Shown: positions 9,312 to 62,083, numbered from the stretch's first letter. The stretch is 64,000 nt of DNA from Candidatus Dojkabacteria bacterium (GCA_016932045.1 JAFGDO010000005.1:36739-100738), one strand, 5' to 3'. The notes: a model not told the origin generated them from the letters alone. Made by a program: numbers and translations.

Positions 9312-12300
9312 CTACCCCCCTAGCGGAGATTTAGGTGTAGATTCTCTTTTACTCGGAATGGATTTAAAAGGAGAAGTGTACATCCTTCCTTTAGATTCAG
9401 TAGTCAATGCTTCCCCAGTTGGATCAACAAACAAATCCTGACTTACTCCCTTCGCCCTTGTCACACTCATCTGTAAAAGATTCTTTTTAATTCTGCCTTT
9501 AAACTCATTCTTTTGAGCTTCTGACGGGAATATATAGCCTTGTCTACCAACAGATAGATCATATTCTCCCGGTTCTGCAATAAATCCAAACCTACCTTTT
9601 TTGTCGCTCACTTGTAAATCAACGGGTTCATGTGTTGCAAGGTCAAATAGTCGAACAAATGAGGAGGCTACAGGTTCCTTGGATTTAGAATCTAGTACGA
9701 TCCCCCAAGATCTAACTCTTAAAAACTTTGCAATAATATCACTTATAGGAATTAGCAGAGAAAACAACACAAAACCTAGATTTATAACACCTAGATTAAA
9801 AACCAGATTAAACACTGAAACACCAAAACCCATATAGAATAATATTTTAACGATACCTCTTGCACTTCTATTAAAGAACTTTTTAATTGTATGTATGGAT
9901 CTAGAAAAATCTCCCAGCTTCTTTGATTCAAGCTCAAAATCAAGCGTAATCCTTTGTACATGTTTGCCTTTTATCCCTAGCTTCTTGGTTACCTTCTTAT
10001 AGTCACTATGGACAACCTCAATGCTATAGTCACCCGGATCTAGAACTATGCCATATCTTCCAGAAAGATCACTAACACTTTGTGTAGCTAAAGATCCATT
10101 ACTTGTATATGCTCTAACAACAGCAAACGCTACTGGTTTTTTGCTAAATGAATCCAAAGTTACCCCCCAAGCTTTTCTTCTTACTACACCTAGAAGAATC
10201 CCAATCGTATTGAAAAATACTCCTGCATTAAAAATATTAGTACCGAGTGTAAGAAGAAGATAAAACAAACCTATCATCCCAGCAGTCACAAACGATCCAC
10301 CTGTAAAGCCCCGTAATATTATTTCATTTTCTTCAAAAAACTCCTTTACAATATCAAGAATTGATGGTGTTGAGCTACTATCCGTTGGGTCACTTTCTCC
10401 TTCGTCTAACTTACCATTGCCATTCATATCTTCTTCTCCATCTTTGTACCCATCATCATCACTATCAGGATCATTCGGATCGGTTTTTCTGCCCTCACCG
10501 TAAGCACCAAGTATCTCAGTATAGTCACTCAAGCCATCAGAGTCTGAGTCAGAACTTAACGGGTCTGTATGATAGATATTAACCTCATCACCATCGCTTA
10601 TACCATCTCCATCACTATCACTACTATAAGGATCTGTACCCAATTCTATCTCAGTTCTGTTATCTAATCCGTCCCCGTCCTCATCTCCTTCGCCAGTTAA
10701 AGGAATACGACCATCCTCTCCCGGATCATTCGGATTATTCGGGTCAGTGCCGTATTTCTTCACCTCATCCCCATCGGAAAGTCCGTCATCATCACTATCA
10801 CTGTCATTCGGGTCTGTTCCGTGTTCCTTCACTTCTTCTCCGTCATTTATCCCATCATCATCTGTATCACTATCACATGGATCTGTCCCGTTCTCATATT
10901 CCTCCTTGTTTGTCAGTCCGTCACTATCCGGATCACCTCCACTATCGGGGACTGTTGATGATACACAATCATATCTGTCCTCCCACTCATCCGGTATCCC
11001 ATCCCCATCTGTATCTTCTTTCCCATCTACAAGCGGTGTAGCCGGTGCATATGCACAATTCACTGCATAGTCACATATCCCTCCTCCATCACAACTACCC
11101 TGACAACTATAATCTCCTCCCACGTTATACCTATTGTCTCCACTCCCTGAACTTCCTCTCCATCCGCTACCACATAAACTCCCCCCACTACATGTTCCTT
11201 GTGAACATCCTGTTCCTACTCCACAGTTAACCTTCTCCTGTCCTACTATGAAACTACAATTACTTATATAATCACACCTATACTGATCTCTTATCCTTTC
11301 ACACAGTCCATTACACCTCCAGCTCCCACTCCCGCACAACGCTGTCCCTTCCTTCCCGCAATCATCGGTTAATGTGTATCCTACACTTGCATACACATTC
11401 TCACTTCCTGCTCCTGTGTTATCTGTTCTACAGCTTCCTGCACCTCCACACGCCCGGTAATACTTCTTCCCTGTGCATTTTCCACTCTCGCATGTCTCTA
11501 TATATTCACAATTATTACTGCTGCTTGGTGCCTCATATGGCATTGTTCCTCCTCCTATCTGATTCTTCCCTACATTCCCATCAGGTACATCTTTCCCCTC
11601 TTCTTCGTAATGGTCACTTGTATCGCTATCACATACTCCCGCTCCTTCACACTCTGCATACCTTTGTGTATATGTACATCCTCCTAGAGTAGAGTAGTAA
11701 TTAATTATTCCTTCACAACTTGTCCTTTCCATAGCATCTGCTTCTCCGCAGTCTCCTTTCAATACCTTTCCTGCAGTTGCAAATACGTCCTCTGTTGCTG
11801 CTCCTGTGTTGTCTGTTCTACAGCTTCCTCCTCCGCTGCAGGCTCGGTAGTATTTCGTCGCACTGCATCCTCCTGCTCCACAAGTCTCTATATACTGACA
11901 ATTATTACTGCTGCTTGGTACTTCATATGGCACACTCCCACCTCCTGTCTGACTCTTCGCTACATTTCCATCAGGCACATTCCCCACTTCCTCTGTATAA
12001 TAGTCACTCGCATCACTATCACAAGTCCCGGCTCCATCACACTCCGCATACCTTTGCGCATATGTACAACTACCTTGACTTGAGTAGTAGTTTGTTCCTC
12101 CGCTACAATTTGTTCCTACTGTCCCATCTGTCTCACTACAATCATTTGTTAATATCTTTCCTGCTCCTGCTGTCACCCCTTCACTTGCTGCTCCTGTGTT
12201 ATCTGTTCTGCAGCTACCTGTCCCTCCGCATGCCCGGTAATATTTTACCGCTCCGCAATCCCCGCTATCACAATCTTCTACATACTGACAGTTATTACTG

Positions 12301-15300
12301 CTGCTTGGTACCTCATATGGCGTACTACTACCTCCACTTTGACCCTTTGCTACATTTCCATTTGGTACATTTAAGCCCACTTCTTCATAATAGTCACTTG
12401 CATCACTATCACATGTTCCTGCTCCATCACACTCCGCATACCTTTGCGTATAAGTACAACTCCCTGCTGCTGAGTAATAATTCACTCCTGCACATGATAA
12501 TGCCGGACTCGATGCATCCACCTCACTTCCTCCACTACATACTTTCATCTGACTCACATTTGCTGTAGCGTCATTTGTGTCACATGCTCCAGCTCCGTCA
12601 CAGTTACCATCCGGTCCTCTTCTTACACATGAACTGTCACAGCTTGTCCACCCTGCCGTGCACTCATTATGCGGATCCTGATTATCTGCTATTAAGTCAC
12701 ATGCTAAATCTCCATCACTACATGAGTAGCATGTCCCACATGCCCCTTTTTCTCCTCCTCCATATATCCCACATGCTCCTGACCCATTGCATGTTCCTGT
12801 TCCACATTCTGTTGCTCCACATTCATTATCTATATCCTGTCCGTTCGGCACATTTGTACACGTTCCTACCGATCCTGTTACATCACAGGCTCTGCATGTA
12901 CTTGTACATGTGCTATTACAACATACTCCATCTACACAGTTCCCTGACGAACACTCACTCCCTGCACTACATCCTTGTCCATTTACCAACTTACATGTCC
13001 CTGTACTTTCACATTCATAATTTGCTGGACAACTGTTCTGCCCTGAGGTGTAACATACTTCTCCTATTGTATCGTAATTCCCAGCCGCTCCTCCTTCAGG
13101 ACATGCCTTCTTGCATCCTGCTGATCCGCATACTCCTCCTCCCGCCTGCCCATTCTCTATGTTTTGTGCTGCACATTCCTGTACCTGTGTTCTGCATGCA
13201 CTTGCTCCATCACACATCCCTGGCGTGGTTGCTGACTTTAGTCTGCATGATAGGGGATTGCCTGCTCCCCATCCGTATATGTATCCTGTACAGTTTCTTT
13301 CTACACACTCGTCCTCCGGATCTGTCCCTGCCGCATGTGCGGTACATATCCCTTCACTTCCGCCTATGTTACATGCTTCGCATGTAACGGCACATGTCGT
13401 ATTACAACAGTACCCGTCTATACAATTTCCTGATGTACAGTCGCTTCCTAGCTGAATAATAACCTTTCCGCTTTCTTCTGGATCTCCGGCGACACCACGG
13501 TCAGGATCCGTACCTACTCCCTGTTGAGTAGTACCACTTGCTCCAGTTGGGTGCACATAACCTGATCCAGCACCACCACCCCCTCCAGCAGCAATGCTAG
13601 TGCCACCACCACCTCCTCCACCATAGTAACCACCACCACCACCTCCTCCTCCACAAAATGTACCAGTCCCTCCTGCACCGCCAACCCCTATAGCACCTGG
13701 TAATCCATTTCCTCCACCAGCGCCACCTACTGACTGAGTGCCACCATCTCCACCAAGTGTTCCTCCTTCAGAATTCTGCCCGTCTCCCCCTGTTGTCCCT
13801 CCTCCAATTCCACCATCGCCTCCTTTTCTATCGTAGGCAGCAGTTCCATCTTCAGACCCGCCGCCGCCACCACCACCCGCAATAATTAAAGAAACTCCAC
13901 TCCTACTAATTTCAGACCTCCCACCCCCACCTCCACCATCACCACCAGCAGCACTGGGATCACCGCCTTCTCCTCCGCCTCCATACCCTCCACCTCCACC
14001 AGCATTCCCTGTTTTACCAGCTCCACCAACAACAATAACTAATGTATCACCAGGTGATACCGGAATAATTCCTTGTGAGAACCCAGCCTCTTCACCATAT
14101 CCAGGATTATGATCATAATATGAAAAACCAGTTCCTCCGCCTGCTCCCCACATCTTTACTTTAACACTTGTAACTCCAGATGGAATTACATAGTTCTGTC
14201 CAGCACCTGTATAATTAAAAGTTAACGTATCACAAACCATCCCATTTTGCATTGTGCATACACTCGGTTCACCTCCACAATCCCATCCTGTCTCGTTAGT
14301 ACAAGTAGAAGAACACCCATCTCCATTTAGAGTCCCACCATCATCACACTCCTCAGTTCCTACCACAATCCCGTCCCCGCAGATCTCGGTACAACTACTA
14401 GGTTCACTGCTACAGTTCCATCCACTTTCAATTGTACATACTGAAGAACATCCGTCTCCACCTCCTGTCCCTCCGTCATCACATTCTTCGTCAATCTGGA
14501 TAACACCATCTCCACAATTAAAAGTTGAGGTGCATGTACCTTCGCTTCCCGGAACATCACATGCTTCATTCACTCCGTTGCATAATGTATCACAGCAGTA
14601 TCCGTCAACACAGTAATCAGATGTGCATCTTGATTCAATAATTATTACTCTTCCATTTTGTTCTGGACTCCCAGCTGTCCCTCTATATGGATCAGTTCCA
14701 ACTCCTCTTATGATGGTACCATTTAATGTATAACTTGTATTTAAATAACTTGAACCGCCACCTCCTCCTGCTCCATAGTGATCGTGCCCACCCCCACCCC
14801 CTCCGTAATATCCGCCTCCACCGCCCCCTCCCGGACCCCATCCGGTAGAAGCTGCTCCAATTCCTCCAGTTAGATATCCTCCATTTCCTCCTCCCGTTGC
14901 TCCTCCAGTCCCACCAGCAGACTGAGTACCCCCGGTTCCACCATACGCAATATCAATAGCATCACAATTATCTTCACCATCTTCTCCAGTTGAACCTCCT
15001 CCATCTCCTCCATCACCTGCACATGAGTTCGGAGAGGACCCTCCTCCTCCTCCTGCTCCTATTATCAGTGGAGTTCCATCACTCTTCTCGAGTGCCGATC
15101 TTCCTCCTCCTCCTCCTGCTATCATTCCTTGACTTCCTGTACCTCCATTACCACCACCTCCCCATCCTCCAGTAGGCTTTGTACCAGCTCCCCCAGCTAT
15201 TATAGTAATCGTCTCTCCGGGCGTTACATTGACATCTGCATCAGAGAATCCGCCTCTGCCACCAGTACACGTTCCAGCAAGACATGTTCCTTTATGTCCA

Positions 15301-17249
15301 CCTGCTCCCCACAACTTTACATGTACCCGATTAACACCTGCAGGTACTGTATAATATTGTTCTGAACCTGTATATTCATATACATCATAGCTGCATGACA
15401 TACCATTTGGTAATGTACATATTGTAGGTTCTCCACTACAATCCCATCCACCTTCCAGTGTACAAGTAGATGAACATCCATCTCCATTACTCATATTCCC
15501 ATCATCACAGGCTTCAGTTCCCTGAACTAATCCATCTCCACAAGCTATGACAGAATAGACTAAACTTACACTGTCAAGCGTTGGAGTGCCTGAACCATCT
15601 GAAATCAGGATAATTCTGTAATAAAAGTTAGCACTAGTCCATCCAAGAGAAGAAATATCTATTGAATTACTACCAGAAGAAAGTGAATTAGTACCATCAA
15701 CAACACCACTTGAGTTATACCACGTAGAAGTATCCTGACTAAATTGTACAGTTGCAGAAGTACCAGCAGGTAGAGTAGTAAGATTATATTCAAAAGAATC
15801 AATTGAGGTTATATCTGTCTCCCCTGCAAGCAAGTTTACAGATTGAATAATTGGAGTTTTAGTATAGTAAACACCGGATGCACCATGCCCCTTGCCTCCA
15901 CCCCAATCACATCCACCCGTCATAAAAGCTCCGCTGTAATCCTTCGTACCAGAACCTCCATAAGCATTATAAGTAATAAATAATGTTCCACCTGCACCTC
16001 CTCCACCATCACCTGGACAGTCTTTTGTCCCAGTACAACCAGTACCTCCAGCTCCACTTTCTCCGGAAACATTTAATGCTCCATTATTTGTCAACTGGGG
16101 AGTAACAATATAGATAATCCCTCCTCCATCTCCACCATATCCACCTTGGTATATATCATCTCCTCCTCCTCCTCCTCCTCCTGAGCCAAGAAAAAGTTTA
16201 TAAAGACTCGCGTATGAACTTCCTCCTGTTCCACCAACGCGCACCGTTCCTCCAACTATACTTGTAGTTGACTCCCCTGTAGTCCCAGTTCCATTATATC
16301 CACCACCTCCACCTCCTGCTCCACCATGACAACCAACAGAAGATCCCCCCCCAGAAGGATCCCCCTCGCCAGCACCTCCTCCACCATCATTATTTGCAGT
16401 CGTCTGACTCGAGGAACCACCAAATGGCCCCAACCCTGTATATCCTAAGTTATCTCTAGGACCACGTGCTCCCCCAGGGAACCCCAACCCCGATACACTT
16501 ATCTCACCACCCGACTGAATATTCACATTTCCCGTTGCACGAAATACTAGTACTCCTCCTCGCCCTGTGCCATCATCATACAAAGGCGTTGTCATAACAC
16601 CCCCACTTTGAACTGTAACATTCGTATACTGAGGAACACGAATTACTTGGCATCTATTTGTTCCACTACCGGAATATGCATATGTCGTGCCTCCAGCCCA
16701 TAAAATGGTATTACCGGCAACAATAACATTCTTTTTAAACTCAGATTCTCCCGCATTAGTACCTTTCATCTGAATTATAAGAATTTCATCACCAGTTGAA
16801 AATCCAGTCGCATCACCTACTGTCATTGATGTTGTACCCACGGGATAATCAGAAGTTATATGTGTATAAAGATTTGTTTCCGGATAGGCTGTTGATATAG
16901 TTGTAGCGCCATCCGTACCATCGCCTTCATCCATATAGGTAATATCATTTATCCGTGCTTGCCCAGCAGCCAAAACATAGTTCCAAGAATTAGAGGCATC
17001 AATTTTTGAAGCGTCGGCATAATCATCTGAAACAGAGGCTACTGCAGCTTCCGTGACCTCGATCTCTTCGGTCACAGATCTAGTCATAACTATAGTCAAT
17101 CCAATGGCCCCAAGAATTAGAAAGGAGGCAAAAAAAAGTAACGGCACTCTTCTTTCCTTATCATTTGCCTTATTTAGCATATTTTTGAGCGTTTTCCTGA
17201 GAGAATTACTCATTACATGTGCGTCTAAATCCTGAGAATAATTATCCAT
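9312..17249 (-). CDS. Giant (2645 aa) membrane-anchored repetitive surface protein. Its architecture is: N-terminal TM anchor; Gly-rich beta-solenoid-like regions; Myxococcus-type Cys-rich repeats (CGDG..GEECDDGN..GDGCS..C); CxxGxCC Cys-knots; three 130-aa Cys-rich tandem repeats; thrombospondin-type-3 Asp-rich Ca-binding repeats; and a C-terminal pair of TM segments each followed by a CarboxypepD_reg/transthyretin-like beta-sandwich.
   Basis: A single uninterrupted 7.9 kb ORF. The domain calls come from motifs read in the translation: [27 protein letters not shown] (Myxococcus-type repeat), VKLWGAGG / VKMWGAGGG Gly-rich modules, DSDGDG..DGEE..GTDP (TSP3-type repeats) and WGVTLDS...[16 protein letters not shown] (CarboxypepD_reg-like). 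The plus-strand ORFs in this interval are His/Leu/Ser-rich antisense artefacts. Confidence 0.8.
10380..11030. repeat. Thrombospondin type-3-like Asp-rich calcium-binding repeats (coding, within the giant gene)
   Basis: Eight or more repeats of D.D.DG..D..E..GTDP..(S)DSD.DG in the translation. Confidence 0.65.
11400..12600. repeat. Three near-identical tandem repeats of about 390 nt (about 130 aa each, Cys-rich) inside the giant gene
   Basis: The string tgctcctgtgtt(a/g)tctgttct(a/g)cagct recurs at 11411, 11799 and 12188 (period about 388-389 nt). The flanking sequence is highly similar over hundreds of nt, and the protein repeats are [11 protein letters not shown]...SCRTDNTGA units. Confidence 0.8.
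13460..15420. repeat. Two divergent copies (about 780 nt each) of a Gly-rich module (Y.TG..Q.Y.VP.GV..V.VK.WGAGGG ... GVGTDP.RG.AG.PE..G.VII) within the giant gene
   Basis: Protein-level duplication: one copy starts [16 protein letters not shown] and the other starts [16 protein letters not shown], with the same motif order in each. Poly-Gly tracts of this kind are encoded by GGN runs, which appear antisense as 'ccacc' strings. Confidence 0.65.
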
Positions 17250-17628
17250 TTCCTCCCAAAAAATATTTATTAATTCTGCTCCTTATCTGCAATCATTGTA
17301 AGGAATTTAGACAATAAAATCAAAATTATTAAACTAATGTAAATCATTAAAAAGATACTAGAGCTCTTTCTCTCTGCTCCTAATGATAGTGAAAATTAGG
17401 GGAATGCTCTGATTTCTTTCTCTAATAATCACAAATAATTAGGCATCATACTAATATCTAATTCTTTACTGCTTAGATCTAGTGAAGAATTCCGCATTAG
17501 CTAATGGCAGATTGGGTTAGATTGTAATTTTATTTATAAGTTATTGTAGCCTGACTTCTAGATAAAGGCAAACTCCTTCCCGAAGATTTCTATTGAATTT
17601 TTACAAAAAGAATACTAAGATTCTCACT

Positions 17629-25386: not shown

Positions 25387-26016
25387 TTAGGGAAGACTTA
25401 GCACCTGTCCTGGAAAGATAAGTGCTCTTGACCCATTTGGTAAAAAACCTATCTGGTCAAGGTTGGCATCCCTAATCTTACCCCACTGAAAGCCACTACC
25501 ATACCTGCCCTCAGCAATTTCCCAAAGAGTATCACCCCACACTACTGTATAGGTGTCTCCTGTGATATCGCCTGGCTTGTAGTCATTTGCTTTCCAGACA
25601 CTAGCAAGACCTCCTGCTCCCTCTTCCTCTGAATCTTCTTTGACATCTTCCTCTGAAGTTTCTTCCGCGTCCCCTTCATCGTTCTCCTCAGAAGCTGCCT
25701 CCTCTGTCACTTCACCTTCCTCTTGAGTTTCCTCTTGAGGTTCCTCTGCAACTTCATCTTGGGTTTCTTCCTCAGGTGTTGTAGTTTCTCCCTCTTCCGC
25801 TGTAGTTTCTACGGCTTCACCCCCTGCTTCCTCGTCCTTACTTGCTTCCTCTTCCTTACTTTCTTCCCTTGACTCCCTTATCTTTGATACTATTTTACTG
25901 ACTCCCCATATACCGCCACCTAAAAGAAGAAGTACAACAACAGCACCAACTAGACCCAAGACAACCGAGGGACCTAGAGCTTGCCTTTCTTCGCCATTAT
26001 TTTCTTTGGCTGACAT
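25387..26016 (-). CDS. LysM-domain peptidoglycan-binding protein with a TM anchor and an acidic linker
   Basis: N-terminal TM helix, then a Glu/Thr-rich low-complexity linker, then a C-terminal LysM (YTVVWGDTLWEIAEGRYG...IFPGQVLSLP). Confidence 0.7.
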   Translation of the reverse strand: MSAKENNGEERQALGPSVVLGLVGAVVVLLLLGGGIWGVSKIVSKIRESREESKEEEASKDEEAGGEAVETTAEEGETTTPEEETQDEVAEEPQEETQEEGEVTEEAASEENDEGDAEETSEEDVKEDSEEEGAGGLASVWKANDYKPGDITGDTYTVVWGDTLWEIAEGRYGSGFQWGKIRDANLDQIGFLPNGSRALIFPGQVLSLP

Positions 26017-26326: not shown

Positions 26327-27451
26327 GTGATCGAATTCAAAAATGTTTCTAAAATCTATACAGGAATAACGGCACTTGATCACATTAACCTTGAAATCAC
26401 AGAAGGTGAATTTGTATTTCTTGTTGGCCCCTCTGGAAGCGGTAAAACAACTATTATAAAACTTCTTATAAAAGAAGAAGAACCAACAGAAGGAAATGTA
26501 TTTTTTTACGAGACTGATATTACAAAGTTAACAGGAGCGAAAGTTTCGCAGCTTAGACAAGAGATTGGCGTGGTTTTTCAAGACTTCAAGTTACTACCAA
26601 ATAAGAACCTTTACGAGAATATTGCCTTTGCACTTGAAGTATCTGGGAAGAAACTTGCCGATATTGAAGAGACCGTACCCTATGTTCTTGAACTTGTAGA
26701 TTTGTCACACAGAGCTAATGCTTTCCCACATGAGATATCCGGTGGTGAGAAACAAAAGATAGCAATAGCCCGAGCAGTTTCAAATAATCCCAAAGTTTTA
26801 ATTGCTGATGAACCTACCGGGAATCTAGATCCTGATTCAAGCTGGGAGATTATAAATTTACTCTCCAAGATCAATGATTGGGGAACAACAGTTATAATGG
26901 CTACACACGGCAGTGAGATAGTAGATAGGCTTGGAAAACGAGTCATACAGCTCGACCATGGCAAAGTCATGTCGGATAATATAAGCGGCAGCTACCCCGC
27001 AAAGAAAACCAGTTCACGACCACAAAAAGAACCGGGAACTCATAAGTCAAAAGTAAAAAGTACAAAAGAAGATAAGATTCAACCTTTAGAAAAAGTTGTT
27101 AAAAAACCCAAACCTAGGCCCCACAAAGAAGCAATTGAGGAGAAAGAATTTGAAATAACATTTACAACAAAACCTAGTACTTTCCGCACCAAACCTAAAA
27201 CTAGAAAAAGTAAAACTGTTATAAAAAATACCAAAAAAAGGACGCCCACGAAAAGAAAAGGTAAAGATGTAGTTGATCTTCACAGCCTGGACATTCCATC
27301 TTCTATTCAAGAACAACTTATCAAGGCTGGCTACACTTCTATCAACGAACTTCAGAAGGACTCCCTACAAAAGCTCAAGAAAATAAAGAATTTAAAAAAC
27401 GATGAAGTGAAAAAAGTAAAAAAAGCACTGGAAAAAAAAGAAAAAAAATAG
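26327..27451 (+). CDS. ftsE: Cell-division ABC ATPase FtsE with a Lys-rich C-terminal extension ending in an HhH (RpoA-CTD-like) motif
   Basis: VIEFKNVSKIY...GPSGSGKTT (Walker A), LSGGEKQKIAIARA (ABC signature), LIADEPTGNLD (Walker B). After about residue 225 comes a KKPKPRPHK...-rich tail, then DLHSLDIPSSIQEQLIKAGYTSINELQK. The track ORF starts at TTG 26210; GTG 26327 gives the canonical N-terminus. Confidence 0.85.
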   Translation: MIEFKNVSKIYTGITALDHINLEITEGEFVFLVGPSGSGKTTIIKLLIKEEEPTEGNVFFYETDITKLTGAKVSQLRQEIGVVFQDFKLLPNKNLYENIAFALEVSGKKLADIEETVPYVLELVDLSHRANAFPHEISGGEKQKIAIARAVSNNPKVLIADEPTGNLDPDSSWEIINLLSKINDWGTTVIMATHGSEIVDRLGKRVIQLDHGKVMSDNISGSYPAKKTSSRPQKEPGTHKSKVKSTKEDKIQPLEKVVKKPKPRPHKEAIEEKEFEITFTTKPSTFRTKPKTRKSKTVIKNTKKRTPTKRKGKDVVDLHSLDIPSSIQEQLIKAGYTSINELQKDSLQKLKKIKNLKNDEVKKVKKALEKKEKK

Positions 27452-27520: not shown

Positions 27521-28441
27521 ATGCTTACCAAGCTAAAAAGAATAGTTAACACTACCAAAACAGACCTAAAAAGGAACAAGGCAATAACCCTAAGCTCAAC
27601 TGCTGTAATGACCCTCGTATTTTTAGTTTTTTCTTCGTTTACACTTTTTGCATTTGCATCAATAAAATTCTTGCATTATGTAGAAACACGAGAACATCTC
27701 GAAGTCTTTTTTAACACAGATGTAGAAGAAGCTGATATTCTTGAGATAAAAAACGAACTAGAAACTACCGGCAAAACTGCATACGTAGAATATACAACAC
27801 AAGAGCAGGCCGCAGAGTTTTTGAAACAAAGACACAGCGACAATCCTCTGATACTAGGAGCCATAAATCCAGAAGCACTTCCTGCAAGTCTAGCGATCAG
27901 AGCAAAGAAGATAGACTACGTTCCAGAATTAAATTCTATCCTCCTATCCAAGGACACCAAGGGAGATCTTATTTACAAAATCGGATACAATGAGGACACA
28001 ACAAATCTTATAAAAGACCTTCTCTTCTGGGTAAGGCTAATCGGAGCTGTCCTTTTCACATTTCTTGTTATTGTGATATTTCTTGTTTCTTTAATCACAG
28101 TTGAGATGAGCATTTCTGCTAGAGCTGAGGAAGTTTCTATCATGCAGCTTGTTGGAGGAGGAAAGTGGTATATCAGAGCACCGTTCATCCTTCAAGGAAC
28201 TTTCTACGGCATAGCTGGAGCCGTAATATCCACTTGTATACTCTTTGCTATTGGACTAGTATTTTACTTTGTAAAAGATCAATCTCCTACTTTATCATTC
28301 TTGTCACGTTTTTTCTCAGACCTTGACTGGCCAAAGATAACAGCTCCCCTTATAGCACTCATATTTGTGGGAGAGATGTTTGTAGGAGGCTTAGTTGGTA
28401 CCATAAACAGTCTAATTGCCGTCTTTCGAAAATTGAAGTAA
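27521..28441 (+). CDS. ftsX: Cell-division permease FtsX
   Basis: N-terminal TM, a periplasmic domain, and a C-terminal 3-TM bundle with the FtsX-like motif MQLVGGGKWYIRAPFILQG. It lies immediately downstream of ftsE. Confidence 0.8.
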   Translation: MLTKLKRIVNTTKTDLKRNKAITLSSTAVMTLVFLVFSSFTLFAFASIKFLHYVETREHLEVFFNTDVEEADILEIKNELETTGKTAYVEYTTQEQAAEFLKQRHSDNPLILGAINPEALPASLAIRAKKIDYVPELNSILLSKDTKGDLIYKIGYNEDTTNLIKDLLFWVRLIGAVLFTFLVIVIFLVSLITVEMSISARAEEVSIMQLVGGGKWYIRAPFILQGTFYGIAGAVISTCILFAIGLVFYFVKDQSPTLSFLSRFFSDLDWPKITAPLIALIFVGEMFVGGLVGTINSLIAVFRKLK

Positions 28442-28470: not shown

Positions 28471-29769
28471 ATGGTTATCAGGATCAGAAAAAGTAAAATA
28501 AAGAGATTTTTGATAACTTTTATAGCAGTAACTCTGCTTATATCTACACCTCTTTTCGGCTTTGTCCTATCGAAAAATAATCCCGTCAAAGCAGACCTTT
28601 ATGATGACCTTGCAAAATTGGAGGAAGAACTTACCCGAATCCGTCAGGAGAAACAAGATCTAGATACAAAAATAGATAGTGAACAGAACCTACAAAATTC
28701 TCTATCTGCTCAAATTTATCAAATATCAAATACTATTGCTCAACTTGAACTCGATATCCAAGTAAAAGAATTAGAAGTTGAAAAGAAGGAAACAGAAATT
28801 AAAATTCTTGAAGAAGAAATAACAGAAGCCCGGCAGTTGATTGATGGCTTAAGTGATGATGTTGAAATTCTTGAAACAACTGCAAATGATATTATTACAA
28901 CTATCTATATAGAATCGAAAACTAATTCGATGATAGATATGTTGCTTTCTTCTAACGAGAGCACAAGCTTCATGAGCCAGCTTCAATATCATACTGCTCT
29001 GGGTGCACACGATCAAAATACTCTTGCTGAACTAGAAAAAGAGAAAGCAAACCTAGAAAATGAAAAGAGCGACATGGAAGATGATAAACTTGAAGTAGAG
29101 AAATTAGCCGAGCAGGTCAACAAGGAGAAAGAACTGCTTGAAAAGGATCGAGAACAGCTTGCCGCGCAAAAGGCTCAAAAGAGCCGCTTGCTTCAGAACT
29201 CTCAGATAGCAGCTGCTTATTACGGTTCGATATATGACAACCTGACAGATGAGGAAATGAAGAAGGAAGCAGAGATGGATTTTATACTGCAACAAATTGT
29301 CAAGAGCGGATCCAAGCCAAAAGGATACGTTGTGCAAGGACAAATTATTGCAACAGAGGGGAATAACGGTTGTTCAACAGGACCTCATACCCACTTCGGT
29401 CTAGCAAAGGATGTGGGAGGATACATAGATGACTACGACTGGGTTGATCCCTGTGGATATCTGCCATATAGATCATTTTGGTATGGTATTTGCAGCGGAA
29501 ACGGAACTTTAAGATATCCATATAATGACCCATTTTACTCATCCCGTGGTTACACATGGTATCACAAGGCACTAGATCTCGTTGCCGGAAGTAACAAATA
29601 TGTTTATGCTTCTCATAATGGTTACTACTTTGAAGAAACTCCTTCGTGCAGCAACAGCTGGTGTAGTGTCGGTTGCAAAGGACCAATTAATCCTTGCATC
29701 AAAGTCTGCGAATCAGTAGATTGTTCAACAGGATTTGTATCAATTTATTGCCACGTGAACTTCCTGTAA
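28471..29769 (+). CDS. EnvC-like coiled-coil protein with a degenerate/rearranged M23 (LytM) domain and a Cys-rich C-terminal tail
   Basis: N-terminal TM helix, about 250 aa of heptad coiled coil, then the M23 C-terminal motif GNNGCSTGPHTHFGL...VDPCGYL. An HxxxD-like segment (YHKALDLVAG...YASHNGYY) follows further downstream. The ftsE-ftsX-envC synteny supports the call. Confidence 0.6.
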   Translation: MVIRIRKSKIKRFLITFIAVTLLISTPLFGFVLSKNNPVKADLYDDLAKLEEELTRIRQEKQDLDTKIDSEQNLQNSLSAQIYQISNTIAQLELDIQVKELEVEKKETEIKILEEEITEARQLIDGLSDDVEILETTANDIITTIYIESKTNSMIDMLLSSNESTSFMSQLQYHTALGAHDQNTLAELEKEKANLENEKSDMEDDKLEVEKLAEQVNKEKELLEKDREQLAAQKAQKSRLLQNSQIAAAYYGSIYDNLTDEEMKKEAEMDFILQQIVKSGSKPKGYVVQGQIIATEGNNGCSTGPHTHFGLAKDVGGYIDDYDWVDPCGYLPYRSFWYGICSGNGTLRYPYNDPFYSSRGYTWYHKALDLVAGSNKYVYASHNGYYFEETPSCSNSWCSVGCKGPINPCIKVCESVDCSTGFVSIYCHVNFL

Positions 29770-33054: not shown

Positions 33055-33296
33055 TTTTGGTATTGCTGATAATCTTAAATTATTAATATACTACATTATC
33101 CGTTTCCTTTGGTCAAAGCCATACACTGTAACAGACAGAGATTACTATTCGTTATACTTAATAGTAATATGTGCTGTGGCAAGTATAAGCAAGACCAAGG
33201 CCTTTTACTATAGACTTAAGATACACTCAGTCTATAGACATCTATAACAAAAACATGCTACAGTATATAGAATAAGTAAATAGAAATTGTAACTAT

Positions 33297-35105
33297 ATGC
33301 TTCTTTCACTCTTTCCTTCAAAGAACAAAATTAAGGCAGAATTACAAAAAAGAAGGGTAGTAGGGTCCTCCTGGTCTAAGCTTATTGACATATCTGTCAT
33401 TATTCCTATCCGCAGAGAATATAGTAATGGTAATCTTCTAGGGCTCCTTCATTCATTTTCTAAAATCCAGATGGAAACCAACCGTAATTTTTATCTGATA
33501 TTTATAATTTATAATCAAGAGAACATATCATCTGACATCAAGGAGGAAAATGCCATCTCATATTCAATTATAAATTATCTTGTAACTTCAAATAAGTCAA
33601 AGCTAGAAAAGCATAAAGTCCTATTTAAACAAAAGGGAATTAGTGAGAATATAATCCAGAAAATTGAGAACATAAAACGAACAGGAATTAAAGTAGCAGC
33701 CATAGATATGTTTAGTGAAGGTATAAAAGCAGAGGAGCTTTCATTAGTAGCAAAAATTGGTTTGCTGTATGCACATAAGCATTTTGATTCTTGCAATAAA
33801 CCAAATGGACTCATTACCTTTTTGCATGCTGAAGATAGACCAGTACTGGAATACATTGAAGAAATAATAGCAAGTAGCAAGAATTTGAAGTTTTTTCAAG
33901 CACTTTTATTACCGCGGAGTTACAAGCTTGAATCAGAACCTGAAGCAAGAAAATATCCAAATGAAGCTTCAAGATTACTTGAATTCTCTGCTAATTATCA
34001 TTTCGAATATAAATTCAATTTTTATAGACAGACTTTCTTTAATTTTTTTATCAATGAAAAACCTCTGCTTGCATTTAAAGAACCATATGCTGTTTTGCGC
34101 TCCTCGTTGGTTCCGGAAATTTTAAAAAGTAGTGCAGCCCCTTATGAAACCGAGAAAGATATGGTTGATGAAAGCTGCTTAATTAGTGAGACTCTTTTGA
34201 ACCTCGGAAAGATATTGTATATGAAATTTCCTTTGACGAAGAGATATGAGCGCTCTTATCAAAAACCTCTTAACGCAAGACAAATATTAGAAAAAATCAT
34301 TAGTAGAGAAGAAAAAATCCTTCAAAAACATGGAAAGTTTGAAAGATTTGATTGCGCTATACTCCGACGTCTAATTACAAATAACGTTCAAGATAATCTA
34401 GTTAAAATTACACGCATAGAAAAATTTTTCGATTACTGTGGCATTATCATAGACACAAAACTATTCACTGAAATAGCTAGCAACCTTGCTGCAACTTCAC
34501 TAGGTAGACGCCTGCAGACTACATCACTAAACAACACTCCTTTAGAGCCACATAAGGTCTTTGAATTATTGAGGCAATACTTCACGATAAAAAAGGAAGC
34601 TTTTTTGGTTGACGAACTTGATTTTACCTATACTCTTCAAGATTTTTTCTTAAACGTTATGGAAGATGACAATGTATCTACCAAATTTTTAAGGAGTACA
34701 GTTGCCGAATCTGAAATAAAGGAAAACAAAGCCATAGAATCGAACAACTTTCATCTGCCAGATCTATATCAGGCACTTGCTTCGGATCAAAATACTGATC
34801 TTCTTCGATGGGAGTTTTTAAAAACAGTTTACACAAAAAGTATGTCTCTCAACATTTTTAAGCAAGAAGTCAGCAAAGCTTATCCGCAGTATTTTGTAAA
34901 GAACCCCCATATTCGAGGAATTTCAAATTCTAAACTCCGAATGAGAAGAGCAGCATATAGAATGTGTGGACTCCTTCATTGGATAAGTGAAATCGTTGCA
35001 CAAAACAAAACCCTTCCAATAGGCGCATTAGCATTTCTTGAAACACTGAAGGATATGAATCCAGTTTCGGTAGAAGAATATAGAAAGATTCATCCAGCTG
35101 AGTGA
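33297..35105 (+). CDS. Large hypothetical protein (602 aa) with a GT-A/GT2-like N-terminal motif
   Basis: Long, very AT-rich ORF. The N-terminus has IDISVIIPIRREYSNGNLLGLLHSF, reminiscent of the GT2 (V)SVIIP.YN motif. The remainder has no recognisable motifs. Confidence 0.5.
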   Translation: MLLSLFPSKNKIKAELQKRRVVGSSWSKLIDISVIIPIRREYSNGNLLGLLHSFSKIQMETNRNFYLIFIIYNQENISSDIKEENAISYSIINYLVTSNKSKLEKHKVLFKQKGISENIIQKIENIKRTGIKVAAIDMFSEGIKAEELSLVAKIGLLYAHKHFDSCNKPNGLITFLHAEDRPVLEYIEEIIASSKNLKFFQALLLPRSYKLESEPEARKYPNEASRLLEFSANYHFEYKFNFYRQTFFNFFINEKPLLAFKEPYAVLRSSLVPEILKSSAAPYETEKDMVDESCLISETLLNLGKILYMKFPLTKRYERSYQKPLNARQILEKIISREEKILQKHGKFERFDCAILRRLITNNVQDNLVKITRIEKFFDYCGIIIDTKLFTEIASNLAATSLGRRLQTTSLNNTPLEPHKVFELLRQYFTIKKEAFLVDELDFTYTLQDFFLNVMEDDNVSTKFLRSTVAESEIKENKAIESNNFHLPDLYQALASDQNTDLLRWEFLKTVYTKSMSLNIFKQEVSKAYPQYFVKNPHIRGISNSKLRMRRAAYRMCGLLHWISEIVAQNKTLPIGALAFLETLKDMNPVSVEEYRKIHPAE

Positions 35106-36652: not shown

Positions 36653-36819
36653 TAGCAGGTTAATGTCAAATCTAATATAGATTACCCAATGATCGTCCCT
36701 CTACCATTGGTATAATATTCAATTACCAATAACCAATAATCAAACAAGAATTTTTCTTTTAGGAATGTACAAATACCGACAAAATTGGTAATACAGAATT
36801 GTCTTTCGTAACCAATATA

Positions 36820-37176
36820 ATGGGTAAACGTTACCACAATTTTGATCTAGAGGAGAGAACTTATAACTTTGCTAGGTCGGTGAGTTTTCTATGCAAGAGG
36901 ATTCCTCTAAACGTAATTAATTCTCCTTATATTTCTCAAGTCATTAGATCGAGCAATTCCTGTGCAGCTAACTACATTGAAGCAAATGAGTCGTGCAGTA
37001 AAAAGGACTTTATCTATAGATTGAGAATTTCCCGAAAAGAAACTAAAGAGACAATACTACACTTAAGACTAATACAGGCTAATAATAAGAGTTTTCAGGA
37101 TAGGATATCCCCATTAATCAATGAAGCTACTGAATTGATAAAGATATTCTCAACTATAATAAATAAATCCCTGTAA
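36820..37176 (+). CDS. Four-helix-bundle protein (23S rRNA IVS-protein / Avd-like family)
   Basis: About 118 aa with YHNFDLEERTYNFARSVSFLCKRIP...SQVIRSSNSCAANYIEANESCSKKDFIYRLRISRKETKET, matching the TIGR02436-type pattern (F...Y......FP..E...L.SQ..RAA.SI..NIAEG..R.S.K.F..FL.IA.GS). Confidence 0.6.
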   Translation: MGKRYHNFDLEERTYNFARSVSFLCKRIPLNVINSPYISQVIRSSNSCAANYIEANESCSKKDFIYRLRISRKETKETILHLRLIQANNKSFQDRISPLINEATELIKIFSTIINKSL

Positions 37177-45352: not shown

Positions 45353-45424
45353 TCCATTTAAAACTTTCAACTTATATTGCAAAATTCATAACTGATAACT
45401 TATATCTTTAATGTTCATCCAAAG

Positions 45425-47464
45425 ATGAAACAATTCTTAAAAAATCACTGGGACGAAGTTACTATCCTAGCAATCACAGCATTAATATCAGCAGTAATCT
45501 TTATTCCATTTTTTGTAAACAATTCCTTAGACAAATTCGACACACCAGGTCTTTTGTCACTCAGCTGGTTTATACGAGAATACACCTTTCCGGACTTTCA
45601 AGGCTGGAATCCTTACTTCTTTGCAGGATTTCCGCAGGGAATTCTGTATCCGCCACTTTTTCACTGGCTTGTAGCCTTGCTTGGAAAAGTTTTTCATCTA
45701 TCCGTTGCATACAAACTAATCATAACAGCTGCAGCAGCTTTTATCCCGTTTTCTATTTATGAGTTCAGTTTGAGAATTTTCAGACAAAAAACTTGGTCAA
45801 TATTAAATACTATAGCTTTACTTATAACTCTTACAGTACTACCGGGTTATCTTGGATTTAATTTCGATGGGGTTTTTGATTACGGCCTAGGACCAAGTTT
45901 TGTAACCATCCCCTTGTTCTTTGGCTACCTTGCGTTACTTTTAGAGAGGAAAAAGAATATAAAGTTTATGTCTTGTCTTTTCAGTTTAATGCTCCTTACA
46001 AATCTCGTTGCACCCTTTGTCGCTGGTATAATTACAATAGTATATTTCTTGTTGAAATTAAATAGAGCAAAGCAATTATTTATGAAGCTTGCCAAATTTG
46101 GACTTTTGAGTCTGCTTCTTACTCTATTTTGGATAATTCCCTATCTTGTGTTTAGGCAGTATACAGCCTCAGGTTTTCCCCCAATGAGATCAAATCTTAT
46201 TATTTCAGGAATTGCTCTTTTCGGATCAATAGGCAGTCTAGCTTTTATCATCTGGAAGGGTGAAGAATCGAAAAGAAAATCTTTTTTGGCATTATTAATA
46301 CCTGCTATTCTTATATCTGCTTTAAATGTAATCGACTCAAGGATTAGTATCTCTATACCTCCTATCCACCCGTTCAGGCTTCAAATATTCTCATTCATTC
46401 CTGTCGCATCTGCTGTTATATATGTGATTCAAATACTTCACCCATCTTTCTTAAAACTAGGGATGAGGTTAAAGATCATGAAGTTTTTACAGCGCAATGT
46501 ACATATAAGTTTCAATCTTTTCTTTGTTTGTTTTTGTCTAATCTTTCTTCTCATAATCCGGCTTAATCCCAGTGGGGTAGATGAGGTAGAACTTGCAAAC
46601 GAATTAGATTGGGAGGGAAGGATTATGCGTGCTTATAAAGTTACCGAAGTTCTAGACCAGTCAAGATCAGTAATAGATAGATCGGTAATGAAAAAAGAGT
46701 ACAAATTTGCAGTAGACGGATTACTAAAAGAATCAAGCTATCTTGCACCATACTACCAATCATTGTCGAAAAGTCTAAACCCGGAAAACTTCACTTGGGA
46801 AAAACTTGATCAGAAATATATCGAAAACAAGCAGGTCCCAGAAGAAAGAACGAAGTATCTTATGAACTTGCTTTGGGTCAAAAGTCTGTTCGTGATTGAT
46901 GAGAATTTTCCTAATTGCGAGAATTTCAAAAAAATATCTCAATTCAAATCAAACTCAAAAAACGAGGGCATACGTGATATAGAAATGTACATCTGCTCCT
47001 ATCCTTACTCTTTAAATAGTAACCTTGTTGAGATGGTTACGGAAAAGCCAAAAGTAGTAGAGAACAATTGGAATAACGCAGTAGATGAGTGGTGGATAAG
47101 TGATAACCAAGAACTATTTACAGACAAAGAAGTTGTTACAAATACAAATATTCCGGTTAATTTTATTCCGGATGTAGAATTTAGTGATGATTACCAGAAA
47201 GTATATATAAGCACAGGAGTCAACGAGGAAATTCCATTCCTTGTAAAAATGAGCTACTTCCCAAAATGGAAAGCATATGACAAAGATGGAAATAGGGTAG
47301 AGATATATAGAACGTCCCCAAATCTTATGATTGTACCTGTAAATGATAAAGTTACTTTAAAATATGAGACAACAATTATTGAGTGGGTTACCTTTGTGAT
47401 TTCAGTAATCAGCTGGAGCAGTCTAGTAGTAATATCAGTTGCCAGAAAGATTAAAGGAATATAA
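45425..47464 (+). CDS. Large polytopic membrane protein with YfhO/GT-C-like architecture (putative membrane glycosyltransferase)
   Basis: 679 aa with about 12 N-terminal TM helices, a roughly 250-aa soluble domain and a terminal TM helix. Only the architecture fits YfhO-type proteins; no diagnostic motif was read. Confidence 0.45.
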   Translation: MKQFLKNHWDEVTILAITALISAVIFIPFFVNNSLDKFDTPGLLSLSWFIREYTFPDFQGWNPYFFAGFPQGILYPPLFHWLVALLGKVFHLSVAYKLIITAAAAFIPFSIYEFSLRIFRQKTWSILNTIALLITLTVLPGYLGFNFDGVFDYGLGPSFVTIPLFFGYLALLLERKKNIKFMSCLFSLMLLTNLVAPFVAGIITIVYFLLKLNRAKQLFMKLAKFGLLSLLLTLFWIIPYLVFRQYTASGFPPMRSNLIISGIALFGSIGSLAFIIWKGEESKRKSFLALLIPAILISALNVIDSRISISIPPIHPFRLQIFSFIPVASAVIYVIQILHPSFLKLGMRLKIMKFLQRNVHISFNLFFVCFCLIFLLIIRLNPSGVDEVELANELDWEGRIMRAYKVTEVLDQSRSVIDRSVMKKEYKFAVDGLLKESSYLAPYYQSLSKSLNPENFTWEKLDQKYIENKQVPEERTKYLMNLLWVKSLFVIDENFPNCENFKKISQFKSNSKNEGIRDIEMYICSYPYSLNSNLVEMVTEKPKVVENNWNNAVDEWWISDNQELFTDKEVVTNTNIPVNFIPDVEFSDDYQKVYISTGVNEEIPFLVKMSYFPKWKAYDKDGNRVEIYRTSPNLMIVPVNDKVTLKYETTIIEWVTFVISVISWSSLVVISVARKIKGI

Positions 47465-59977: not shown

Positions 59978-60193
59978 AAATGAAGAATAAAAAATATAAT
60001 ATTGAAAGTATAATACAAAAACATATTTCTATCAAAACATTTCGAGTATCGGACGAAGTCCGACCTATGATTATGTATTGATACTTACTTTGAATTTCCC
60101 ATAACGACTAAAAATCCGATATCTTTATTAATAAGAGATTTAGTTTATCTTACTACTCTAGTAAATAGATCAATAATGTACTAGAATAATATT

Positions 60194-62083
60194 ATGATTG
60201 AATCTGCTCCGTCTTGGTCAAAAAGAAATAAACGTATACTTTTATTTTGCTGTTCTTGTATTCTCATCCTTTTAGTGTGCATTGTAGTTGTAACAACCGG
60301 GTATTGGGTCTACTATACATATTTCAAATCCAGAGGAGGGCCACTTATATACGAACTTACCCTTGAAGGATATAACTTAGAAGAATCAGATTCCATCGAC
60401 TTTAACGGCGGCGTAATCAAAGTTAATGATACATCAAGTCCTCTTTATGGTGCTAAAGTCGAAATAGCCGAAGGATCGCTAACTGAGAGTGAATCTGTTG
60501 AAATCGGATATAGTGAAATACAAATTGTAAATATTCCTGAAGATATGGAAATATTAGGAGAAATGGTTGTGCTAGAAAAAACAAAAAAGGACGAACTCTT
60601 TAACTATCCTGTTGCAGTAACTCTTCCTTTCGATAAATCAAGAGTTAAAAATGGTGAATTAGTAGGAGTATATGAATATGATGAAGACACTGGATACTTG
60701 CAATCAACAACGCTTGCAGATTATGATGAAGAGAATGGAACAATAACCATCCTAATCACCCACTTTTCTAAACTTGTACGGATAAAAGTATCGATTGAGG
60801 GTAAACTTAAAAAAGCAATAAGCAATGGTTACGATACTGGTTTTAGAGTAAATGAAGATGGTTTTTTCATAAGCAACTGGGGTAGTTTTGAGACATATGG
60901 TAATTGTTTGGGAATGTCTTCAATGGCAAAGTTTCAATATGTCTACAAAAAAAGACCGCAAAAGACATTCTATGAAAGATATAGAGTAGGCCTTAAGGAT
61001 GAGGAGTTTGATGACGAAGCGGCTCAAGAATTGGTAGGTAGAATTGATGTTAAGCTTGAACCTAGATTTCTAAGAATGCAAGAAGATATGTTTCGTTTTG
61101 GGAAAGGTTATTACTCTCTCAATAAATATTATCCAATGTATGTTCTGCAAAATATGGTAGTTACTGGACAGCCTGAACTATTGTATCTTAGAAAAGCAAA
61201 TTATGTTACTGATCCAAACGGATATGTGAGAGCTGAATTTGTACTTGGAAATAATCATGCAGTATTAGCCTATAAATATGAAGATGGGTACATGCATATA
61301 TATGACCCCAATTTCCCCTATAGGCGAGGAGCGGATGAGAATAGAAATGATAGAAAGATTAAATTTTCCTATGATCGTGGATTCGATACATATTATTCAG
61401 GATTAACTTCAGAAGGATCAAAGTATACATTTGATGTATTCATTCCTTTTGCCAGCAACTTTGTGATCGGCAACAGAGAAATGCGTGATCTATTAACACT
61501 ATCCTTAGAAGGATTTTCGGATGGTTATTATCCTGACATTACAATCGACTATCCAAAACCTGAAAATATAGTTATCTCGGATTCTGTAACTATACGAGGT
61601 AATATTTTTAGTGAAAAGTATAAAGCAGCAAGCAATGATTATAAATATATCCACGCATATTATAAAAGTAGTACAAGCGACAAAGATCATAGGGTGCAAA
61701 AGATTTCAAGTGACGGGAGTTTTTCCATAAACGTTCCATTATTAAGTGGTGAGAATGTAATTCATCTTGTAGCAGGAGGACAGGCTGAAAACACAGGATG
61801 GGCTGCATACAAAAAAGTTATAGTAAATCTTGAAAGTTTTGCTAAAGAAGGAAGTCCTCCTCCTCAATACGATCCAATTGATACTTGTGAAGAATTGTGG
61901 GAGAGAGGAAAAGTAGAATATGAAGTTGATTTTTATGCAGAAGATCCAAAGGGAGGATGGGTACATTGCTATGATTATAATGAAGATTTGGATATATTTT
62001 GCAAGGACGGTCATCTTGATTCAATTGAATGGAATGAGATTGAGGAAGATTATGCTAAGTGTATAAAGTATTTAAATCAATAA
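60194..62083 (+). CDS. Large membrane-anchored hypothetical protein with a possible papain-like Cys/His core
   Basis: 629 aa with an N-terminal TM helix (LLFCCSCILILLVCIVVV). GNCLGMSSMAKFQY (candidate nucleophile Cys) and NNHAVLAYKYEDGYMHIYDPN (candidate His/Asp) lie in papain/transglutaminase-like order. This is speculative. Confidence 0.5.
   Translation: MIESAPSWSKRNKRILLFCCSCILILLVCIVVVTTGYWVYYTYFKSRGGPLIYELTLEGYNLEESDSIDFNGGVIKVNDTSSPLYGAKVEIAEGSLTESESVEIGYSEIQIVNIPEDMEILGEMVVLEKTKKDELFNYPVAVTLPFDKSRVKNGELVGVYEYDEDTGYLQSTTLADYDEENGTITILITHFSKLVRIKVSIEGKLKKAISNGYDTGFRVNEDGFFISNWGSFETYGNCLGMSSMAKFQYVYKKRPQKTFYERYRVGLKDEEFDDEAAQELVGRIDVKLEPRFLRMQEDMFRFGKGYYSLNKYYPMYVLQNMVVTGQPELLYLRKANYVTDPNGYVRAEFVLGNNHAVLAYKYEDGYMHIYDPNFPYRRGADENRNDRKIKFSYDRGFDTYYSGLTSEGSKYTFDVFIPFASNFVIGNREMRDLLTLSLEGFSDGYYPDITIDYPKPENIVISDSVTIRGNIFSEKYKAASNDYKYIHAYYKSSTSDKDHRVQKISSDGSFSINVPLLSGENVIHLVAGGQAENTGWAAYKKVIVNLESFAKEGSPPPQYDPIDTCEELWERGKVEYEVDFYAEDPKGGWVHCYDYNEDLDIFCKDGHLDSIEWNEIEEDYAKCIKYLNQ

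Follow-up and report, generated by a model that had tools for sequence, protein, structure and literature searches.

FtsE of a Dojkabacteria genome extended by a lysine-rich linker and a terminal domain that folds like the C-terminal domain of RNA polymerase alpha

In a stretch of 64,000 nucleotides from Candidatus Dojkabacteria bacterium (GCA_016932045.1 JAFGDO010000005.1:36739-100738), which we refer to at its full length as the window, the ftsE gene encodes a protein with a long C-terminal extension. FtsE is the ATPase of the FtsEX complex, a regulator of cell-wall hydrolases. Here its ATPase core is followed by a lysine-rich linker, a short conserved peptide and a four- to five-helix domain whose fold is that of the C-terminal domain of RNA polymerase alpha (aCTD). 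This architecture is confined to some lineages of the Patescibacteria phylum. Judging from the alignments, the residues with which the aCTD contacts DNA are lost in the FtsE tail domain. Our tentative reading is that the extension is a flexible docking arm on FtsEX, whose peptide and domain are probably protein-binding.

By every sequence criterion that we tested, the window protein comes out as a genuine member of the FtsE family. It is encoded by a single uninterrupted reading frame on the plus strand, from the GTG at 26327 to the end of the stop codon at 27451, and the product is 100% identical, end to end, to a public protein (P0001) from Candidatus Dojkabacteria bacterium that NCBI names FtsE. 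Residues 1-213 match the FtsE equivalog model NCBIfam TIGR02673 over model positions 1-214 of 214 with 275.7 bits, while the curated cutoff is 264.85 bits; PF00005 matches the core with an E-value of 4.5e-35. The Walker A motif (GPSGSGKT, 34-41), the signature (SGGEKQ, 138-143), Walker B (VLIADEPT, 157-164, including the catalytic Glu) and the H-loop (ATHG, 192-195) are all present, and these columns are invariant in an alignment of 99 sequences. The net charge of the core is -10.

Canonical FtsE, as described by TIGR02673, ends at about 220-230 residues, whereas the window protein has about 150 more, made up of linker, peptide motif and folded domain. For a length control we used 80 FtsE loci from all over bacteria, collected by a scan of a genome collection with a full-length alignment: these proteins are mostly 204-256 aa and lack the domain. 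Both the canonical length and the size of the extension had been given correctly by the initial annotation: we find about 150-160 residues beyond the core, and all the basic strings that it quoted are present.

To describe the structure of the extension we use a full-length AlphaFold2 model, for which the 99-sequence alignment was the input. In the core the predicted local distance difference test (pLDDT) score is mostly above 90. Residues from about 223 to 315 are unstructured, with block means of 44-59 and no secondary structure, so that the linker (residues 223-312) is predicted to be disordered. After it comes a helical bundle at 317-373, with block-mean pLDDT of 92-97 over 321-374.

The fold of this bundle can be assigned from the tails of related proteins. 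When a profile of 53 homologous tails is compared with solved structures, RpoA chains are matched at an E-value of 5e-9 and the entire aCTD is covered; weaker matches are obtained to the last domain of Hel308, the RAD51 N-terminal domain, the NusA acidic repeats and DisA. Among the same 53 tails, 23 match PF03118 (RNA_pol_A_CTD) at E <=1e-3 (best 4.6e-10), ten match HHH_5 and four RAD51D_N. The window domain itself appears to be a borderline member of PF03118: scanned alone it scores 25.0 and 24.2 bits and within longer queries 21.2-22.3 bits, around the gathering score of 23.8 bits. With the core score, a linker of 33% K+R and the profile match to RpoA, the description of this protein as an FtsE with a lysine-rich linker and an RpoA-like terminal domain holds, and profile methods do detect the aCTD-type domain, as had been proposed as a check of the tail.

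Not all searches are informative for so short a domain. The tail alone as a single query gave no matches, with just 17 candidates from the word index. One match passed when the tail-domain profile was run against an index of 5.8 billion proteins, a database size at which a 60-residue domain cannot reach significance. Among the proteins of the window, where we sought an rpoA for comparison, the sole match of the tail profile is FtsE itself. The sequence profiles also bear on the idea that the terminal domain self-associates in the manner of SAM domains and thereby clusters FtsEX at the division site. They return aCTD, RAD51, NusA and Hel308, while SAM is absent among the tail-profile matches and a SAM likeness is not stronger than the alternatives; we regard such clustering as very improbable.

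Next, we consider the residues that contact DNA in the aCTD. The Escherichia coli RpoA sequence, with its numbering checked, aligns to the tail profile without gaps over residues 256-307. All five DNA-contact positions that we checked are replaced in the window protein (Table 1), and the position of C269, which also belongs to the "265 determinant", is Q. Over 110 tails none of the five is conserved as in the aCTD: K occupies the R265 position in 35%, E in 20% and S in 14%; most tails have D, S, T or N for G296, a helix N-cap and not a hairpin glycine; and the S299 position is acidic in 83%. What is conserved over these tails is mainly the hydrophobic core, two glycines, the acidic S299-equivalent and two lysines of the last helix. 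Further, the first hairpin has one glycine (KAGYT), the second (NLKNDE) has none, so the canonical G-h-G pattern is missing, and the HHH_5 score of 15.9 bits lies well below the cutoff, which is 27.

The charge of the domain is equally variable. It is +6 in the window protein and ranges from -14 to +11 among 109 homologues, being negative in 56 and positive in 47 of them. Since the domain of distant orthologues is strongly acidic, DNA binding cannot be its conserved job, and a conserved aCTD-style DNA-binding role is not supported by the sequences. The proposal of a DNA- or RNA-binding helix-hairpin-helix (HhH) is thus upheld in part: the fold is that of the aCTD, while the contact positions, the second hairpin and the HHH_5 score do not agree with it.

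The architecture is widespread among the nearest relatives. The 120 best homologues, which come from several public sources (NCBI, JGI, ENA and Logan), are all long, 296-502 aa. When the last 70 residues serve as the seed of an iterated search, the terminal domain is recovered from 109 of the 120 tails, and it can be recognized by eye in two more (P0025 and P0068), so the extension is conserved in relatives, as had been asked of it. The long-tailed homologues come under the names Dojkabacteria or WS6, Doudnabacteria and "Patescibacteria group". In the genome-collection sample, Patescibacteria labelled Saccharibacteria, Paceibacterota, Komeilibacteria and Collierbacteria have FtsE of ordinary length, 225-230 aa. 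An FtsE from Beckwithbacteria (L065, 327 aa) has a K/E-rich tail that ends in a KRKRFSLKFLKK patch and lacks the domain. The initial annotation had called the appendage unusual; this is right against bacteria at large, but within this clade the appendage is the rule.

Long FtsE tails without an aCTD-like domain occur elsewhere too: in Leucobacter (L017, 442 aa, Ala/Pro/Glu-rich), on a contig labelled Parabacteroides merdae (L048, 403 aa), and in metagenome-assembled genomes of Clostridiales (L013, 318 aa) and Saccharibacteria (L046, 342 aa).

An extension of this kind could also be an artefact of assembly or frameshift, or functionless low-complexity drift in an AT-rich genome. The GC content is low, 36.9% in the whole window and 33.8% in the ftsE tail, and lysine-rich low complexity is common in AT-rich genomes. 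Against this stand the same architecture in about 110 of 120 homologues from several public sources, the uninterrupted frame, the conserved segment SDNKKG.YP that joins core to tail, and a peptide and a domain that are conserved within an otherwise unalignable linker. Further, none of the 80 loci has a separate domain gene beside a short ftsE; the domain is seen only fused to FtsE, in L081-L085. In addition, the low-complexity linker of the neighbouring LysM protein is acidic, so composition alone does not force basic tails. We find this explanation hardly credible as a whole, and its specific form, an assembly or frameshift fusion with a downstream open reading frame (ORF), is ruled out by the frame, the bridging segment and the homologues.

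A full-text literature search found no description of an FtsE-aCTD fusion or of an FtsE extension in Patescibacteria. Precomputed Pfam annotation already puts PF03118 on a few of the homologues. As far as can be told, the architecture is visible in databases yet uncharacterised.

Between core and domain, conservation is restricted to short islands. The post-core segment, which spans the core-tail junction, has the consensus SDNKKG.YP in the close clade and RDD.KG.Y elsewhere, with D217, G221 and Y223 at least 90% conserved in the 99-sequence alignment. The linker (residues 223-312) is rich in K, T and P and carries a net charge of +21; K+R make up 33% of it, and it contains 10 Pro and 19 Ser+Thr. 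Among the 23 closest homologues it cannot be aligned apart from one peptide island, EKEFEITFTTK. All but one of the 23 have the core of this motif (consensus FEITFTTK, with conservative variants), and identity is 90% or higher in most of the motif's columns, which makes these 11 residues the best-conserved element of the tail in the close clade, above the folded domain. Hydrophobic and polar residues alternate in it, as in an amphipathic beta-strand. A second conserved island, KGKDVVDL.KL.LP, is the lead-in to the terminal domain.

Distant homologues have kindred peptides with the same alternating hydrophobic pattern and basic flanks (KKISFSTKKK, RKGPIKVxh, RVKLDLTGKKK); in these other clades RKGPIKVxh sits just past the core and RVKLDLTGKKK at the very C-terminal end. 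Such a peptide is still present in some homologues without the folded domain. Because it outranks the folded domain in conservation and persists where the domain is missing, the EKEFEITFTTK-type peptide has the signature of a binding peptide. We also considered docking of the peptide onto the protein's own ATPase core; in the full-length monomer model, a weak test of such docking, the peptide shows no structure there (pLDDT about 48-59), and the idea was set aside.

In the tails of many homologues from other Patescibacteria clades (P0029-P0119) two more elements can be observed. One is a stretch like GFFSKLFGRK or FSRIFGVFRKNK, which resembles an amphipathic membrane-targeting helix, and the other is a basic C-terminal peptide, RVKLDLTGKKK or KVKVDLTAKPKSK, that follows an acidic domain. 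No amphipathic-helix stretch like GFFSKLFGRK was seen in the tail of the window protein.

These elements are relevant for another explanation, that the arm is a membrane-binding device in which polybasic-hydrophobic stretches lie on anionic phospholipids and either hold and orient FtsE or sense the lipid composition or curvature of the septum. The GFFSKLFGRK-like stretches would fit such a device, and so would the basic-hydrophobic patches of other clades (KKKISFSIKKK, RVKLDLTGKKK and the terminal patch of the Beckwithbacteria protein) and the charge of the window linker. However, FtsX already keeps FtsE at the membrane, acidic residues precede the peptide motif in the window protein (EEKEFE), which has no evident amphipathic stretch, and the conserved folded domain is left unexplained. 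We therefore hold membrane binding to be distinctly unlikely as the purpose of the arm.

FtsE in Dojkabacteria and some other Patescibacteria has gained a C-terminal cytoplasmic arm, which consists of a linker some 90 residues long, with the peptide inside it, and the terminal domain. Under the docking account, towards which we lean without firm conviction, this arm, present twice per FtsE dimer, could act as a flexible tether that docks membrane-bound FtsEX to another cytoplasmic component where the cell divides. Specific binding would fall to the peptide and the folded domain, with a protein as the most likely partner, and the lysine-rich linker of this clade may in addition attract polyanions non-specifically, for example nucleoid DNA, RNA or anionic lipid; from its charge of +21, such a clade-specific affinity is possible.

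A protein partner is suggested by conservation that is limited to the fold and the peptide. It is also suggested by the charge of the domain, which swings from very acidic to basic and fits scaffold or protein binding over conserved DNA binding, and by the closest structural relatives (the aCTD, the NusA repeats and the RAD51 N-terminal domain), which are protein-binding modules. The RpoA aCTD and the acidic repeats of NusA both bind proteins.

Several observations weigh against the docking account. Across the whole family of 110 tails there is no conserved polar surface patch, so that a fixed protein interface is not evident either. A basic linker rich in K, T and P together with a basic domain resembles histone-H1-like DNA-binding tails, and domains of this type that are appended to ATPases, as in Hel308, DisA and RAD51, usually contact DNA; these three families are among the matches of the tail profile. 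Further, the close clade is the basic end of the distribution, with the domain mostly at +5 to +11 and the linker mostly at +11 to +27. A few close homologues also keep an aCTD-like G-x-G-x-K-S loop, for instance GIGRKSL in P0008, and direct DNA binding is for this reason conceivable in this clade.

The same observations can be read as a nucleic-acid-binding module, in which basic linker and HhH tie the divisome ATPase to the nucleoid and so make septal wall hydrolysis depend on whether DNA is there or not. We consider this unlikely, but less so than membrane binding. It would account for the aCTD fold, for the positive charge of linker and domain, which most of the 23 close homologues share, for the H1-type composition of the linker, and for the GhGxKS hairpin in some of these homologues. 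In addition, a South-western overlay screen from 2009 showed DNA binding by canonical FtsE of Neisseria, in which no DNA-binding motif could be recognized (PMC2885667); this is the one related report that the literature search brought up. What speaks against the module is the replacement of all five contact residues, with an acidic residue at the S299-equivalent in most tails, the second hairpin without glycine and the low HHH_5 score. Finally, the orthologous domain is acidic in more than half of the homologues, which makes DNA binding clade-specific at most.

A related proposal, which we judge to be quite improbable, is that the polycationic linker and the aCTD-like domain attach either to DNA or to something that the real aCTD binds as well, such as NusA or a transcription factor, and so link FtsEX to the nucleoid or the transcription machinery. 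If this were true, cleavage of septal peptidoglycan would be gated by chromosome occupancy, that is a nucleoid occlusion built into FtsE in the ultrasmall Patescibacteria.

The interest of the arm lies in the position of FtsEX, a widely conserved switch that couples division events in the cytoplasm to cell-wall cleavage outside the membrane. How FtsEX receives its cytoplasmic input is still debated even in model bacteria. A tether with a conserved peptide and a folded interaction domain on the ATPase of one lineage would be a natural handle for finding the cytoplasmic contacts of FtsE. The arm also gives the cell biology of Patescibacteria, which is poorly understood, one concrete feature that can be tested, and it is a case in which the aCTD fold is re-used outside RNA polymerase after loss of its DNA-contact residues. 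Since most of these organisms have not been cultured, its practical impact will stay limited as long as there is no partner to work with.

The tail domain differs from its closest known relative in two properties that define the aCTD (PF03118; PDB 1z3e_B and 1doq), and by sequence it fails both: the DNA-contact residues are replaced, and the domain is attached to the FtsE ABC ATPase core where the aCTD follows the RpoA N-terminal domain. The AR1/AR2 repeats of NusA and the N-terminal domain of RAD51/Dmc1, which are double HhH units and partly or wholly protein-binding, match more weakly than the aCTD and belong to unrelated host proteins.

Against 1.84 billion representative proteins the tail profile gives 3514 matches at E <=1e-3. 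The top matches are proteins of 3-13 tandem aCTD-like (PF03118) repeats that have neither an ABC domain nor the RpoA N-terminal part, and they indicate that the aCTD fold is widely re-used outside RpoA. Examples among P0122-P0270 are P0122 (806 aa, 11 Pfam stretches) and P0123 (900 aa, 9 stretches). They lead the search because each has many copies, despite a far lower score per copy: about 17 bits in P0122 versus 75 bits for the single copy in the FtsE tail of P0040. The FtsE tails form their own subgroup.

The gamma domain of FtsK, Noc and SlmA are couplers of the divisome to the chromosome. They offer a functional analogy to the extended FtsE: in each case a division protein associated with the membrane has a long linker and ends in a small domain that belongs to a DNA-binding fold class. 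There is no homology, however, and in the FtsE tail DNA binding is unsupported by the contact residues.

Table 1. Features of the extended ftsE, replacements at the DNA-contact positions of its terminal domain, and the two genes that follow
Feature	Position in window	Strand	Basis
ftsE, 374 codons plus stop, GTG start	26327..27451	+	ORF and translation
ABC ATPase core, residues 1-222	26327..26992	+	TIGR02673, PF00005, AlphaFold2 pLDDT, motif positions
Post-core segment SDNISGSYP, residues 216-224	26972..26998	+	Conservation profile, 23 close homologues
Polycationic linker, predicted disordered, residues 223-312	26993..27262	+	Composition, AlphaFold2 pLDDT
Short linear motif EKEFEITFTTK, residues 272-282	27140..27172	+	Conservation in close homologues
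aCTD-like helical domain, residues 311-374, including the conserved lead-in KGKDVVDL	27257..27448	+	
R265 (E. coli aCTD DNA contact), S in window protein			
N268 (E. coli aCTD DNA contact), E in window protein			
G296 (E. coli aCTD DNA contact), K in window protein			
K298 (E. coli aCTD DNA contact), D in window protein			
S299 (E. coli aCTD DNA contact), E in window protein			
ftsX, 306 aa from ATG at 27521 (ORF opens at TTG 27482)	27521..28441	+	PF18075 FtsX_ECD, PF02687 FtsX
Coiled-coil protein with M23 (LytM) domain, apparently permuted order	28471..29769	+	PF01551 partial match, PcsB-type coiled coil

The surroundings of the gene are those of an FtsEX system. Directly 3' of ftsE lies ftsX, whose product has the FtsX extracellular and permease domains and matches the NCBIfam FtsX models at E-values of 5e-43 and 7.5e-38, under their curated cutoffs. 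The coiled-coil M23 protein encoded after it is likely to be the peptidoglycan hydrolase partner of FtsEX. With intact catalytic motifs, an equivalog score above the cutoff, an adjoining ftsX and a coiled-coil hydrolase gene thereafter, the locus is like canonical FtsEX systems; the layout corresponds to that of the FtsEX-PcsB, -EnvC and -RipC systems. The order ftsE-ftsX is repeated in L081-L085, and that of a long ftsE, ftsX and an M23 gene in L082-L085. L082 and the window also have LysM and AI-2E genes upstream in common. The LysM gene lies upstream of ftsE in both; in the window (25387-26016, minus strand) its product has a membrane segment at the N-terminus and a long low-complexity linker that is acidic and rich in Glu.

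The M23 protein has an unusual order of motifs. In the window protein and in its counterparts in L082 (8111-9349) and L084 (8407-9675) HxH precedes HxxxD; in the window they are found at about residues 306 and 365, both are kept, and the C-terminal part is Cys-rich. All three proteins stop right after a "Y.HL" strand that normally stands before the HxH segment. We placed the C-terminal piece by hand ahead of the N-terminal piece and rescored the result against PF01551. The rejoined proteins of L082 and L084 then match the full-length profile (positions 2 or 3 to 96 of 96) with 46.5 and 55.6 bits, and the rejoined window protein scores 39.8 bits, compared with 26.9 for the native full-length protein, with a match that extends to profile positions 39-89. 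Taken together this points to a circular permutation of the LytM/M23 domain that is conserved in the FtsEX-linked hydrolase of these bacteria.

A few other genes of the window can be mentioned. A giant ORF of 2656 aa (9315-17282, minus strand) has bacterial TSP3 repeats, DUF4215 and an ALK/LTK-type glycine-rich domain, and its product is presumably a large surface protein. Three ORFs on the plus strand, 33276-35102, 45392-47461 and 60185-62080 (609, 690 and 632 aa), have no Pfam match at E <=1e-5. A small ORF at 36763-37173 (plus strand) matches the "23S rRNA-intervening sequence protein" family (PF05635, E 1.3e-11).
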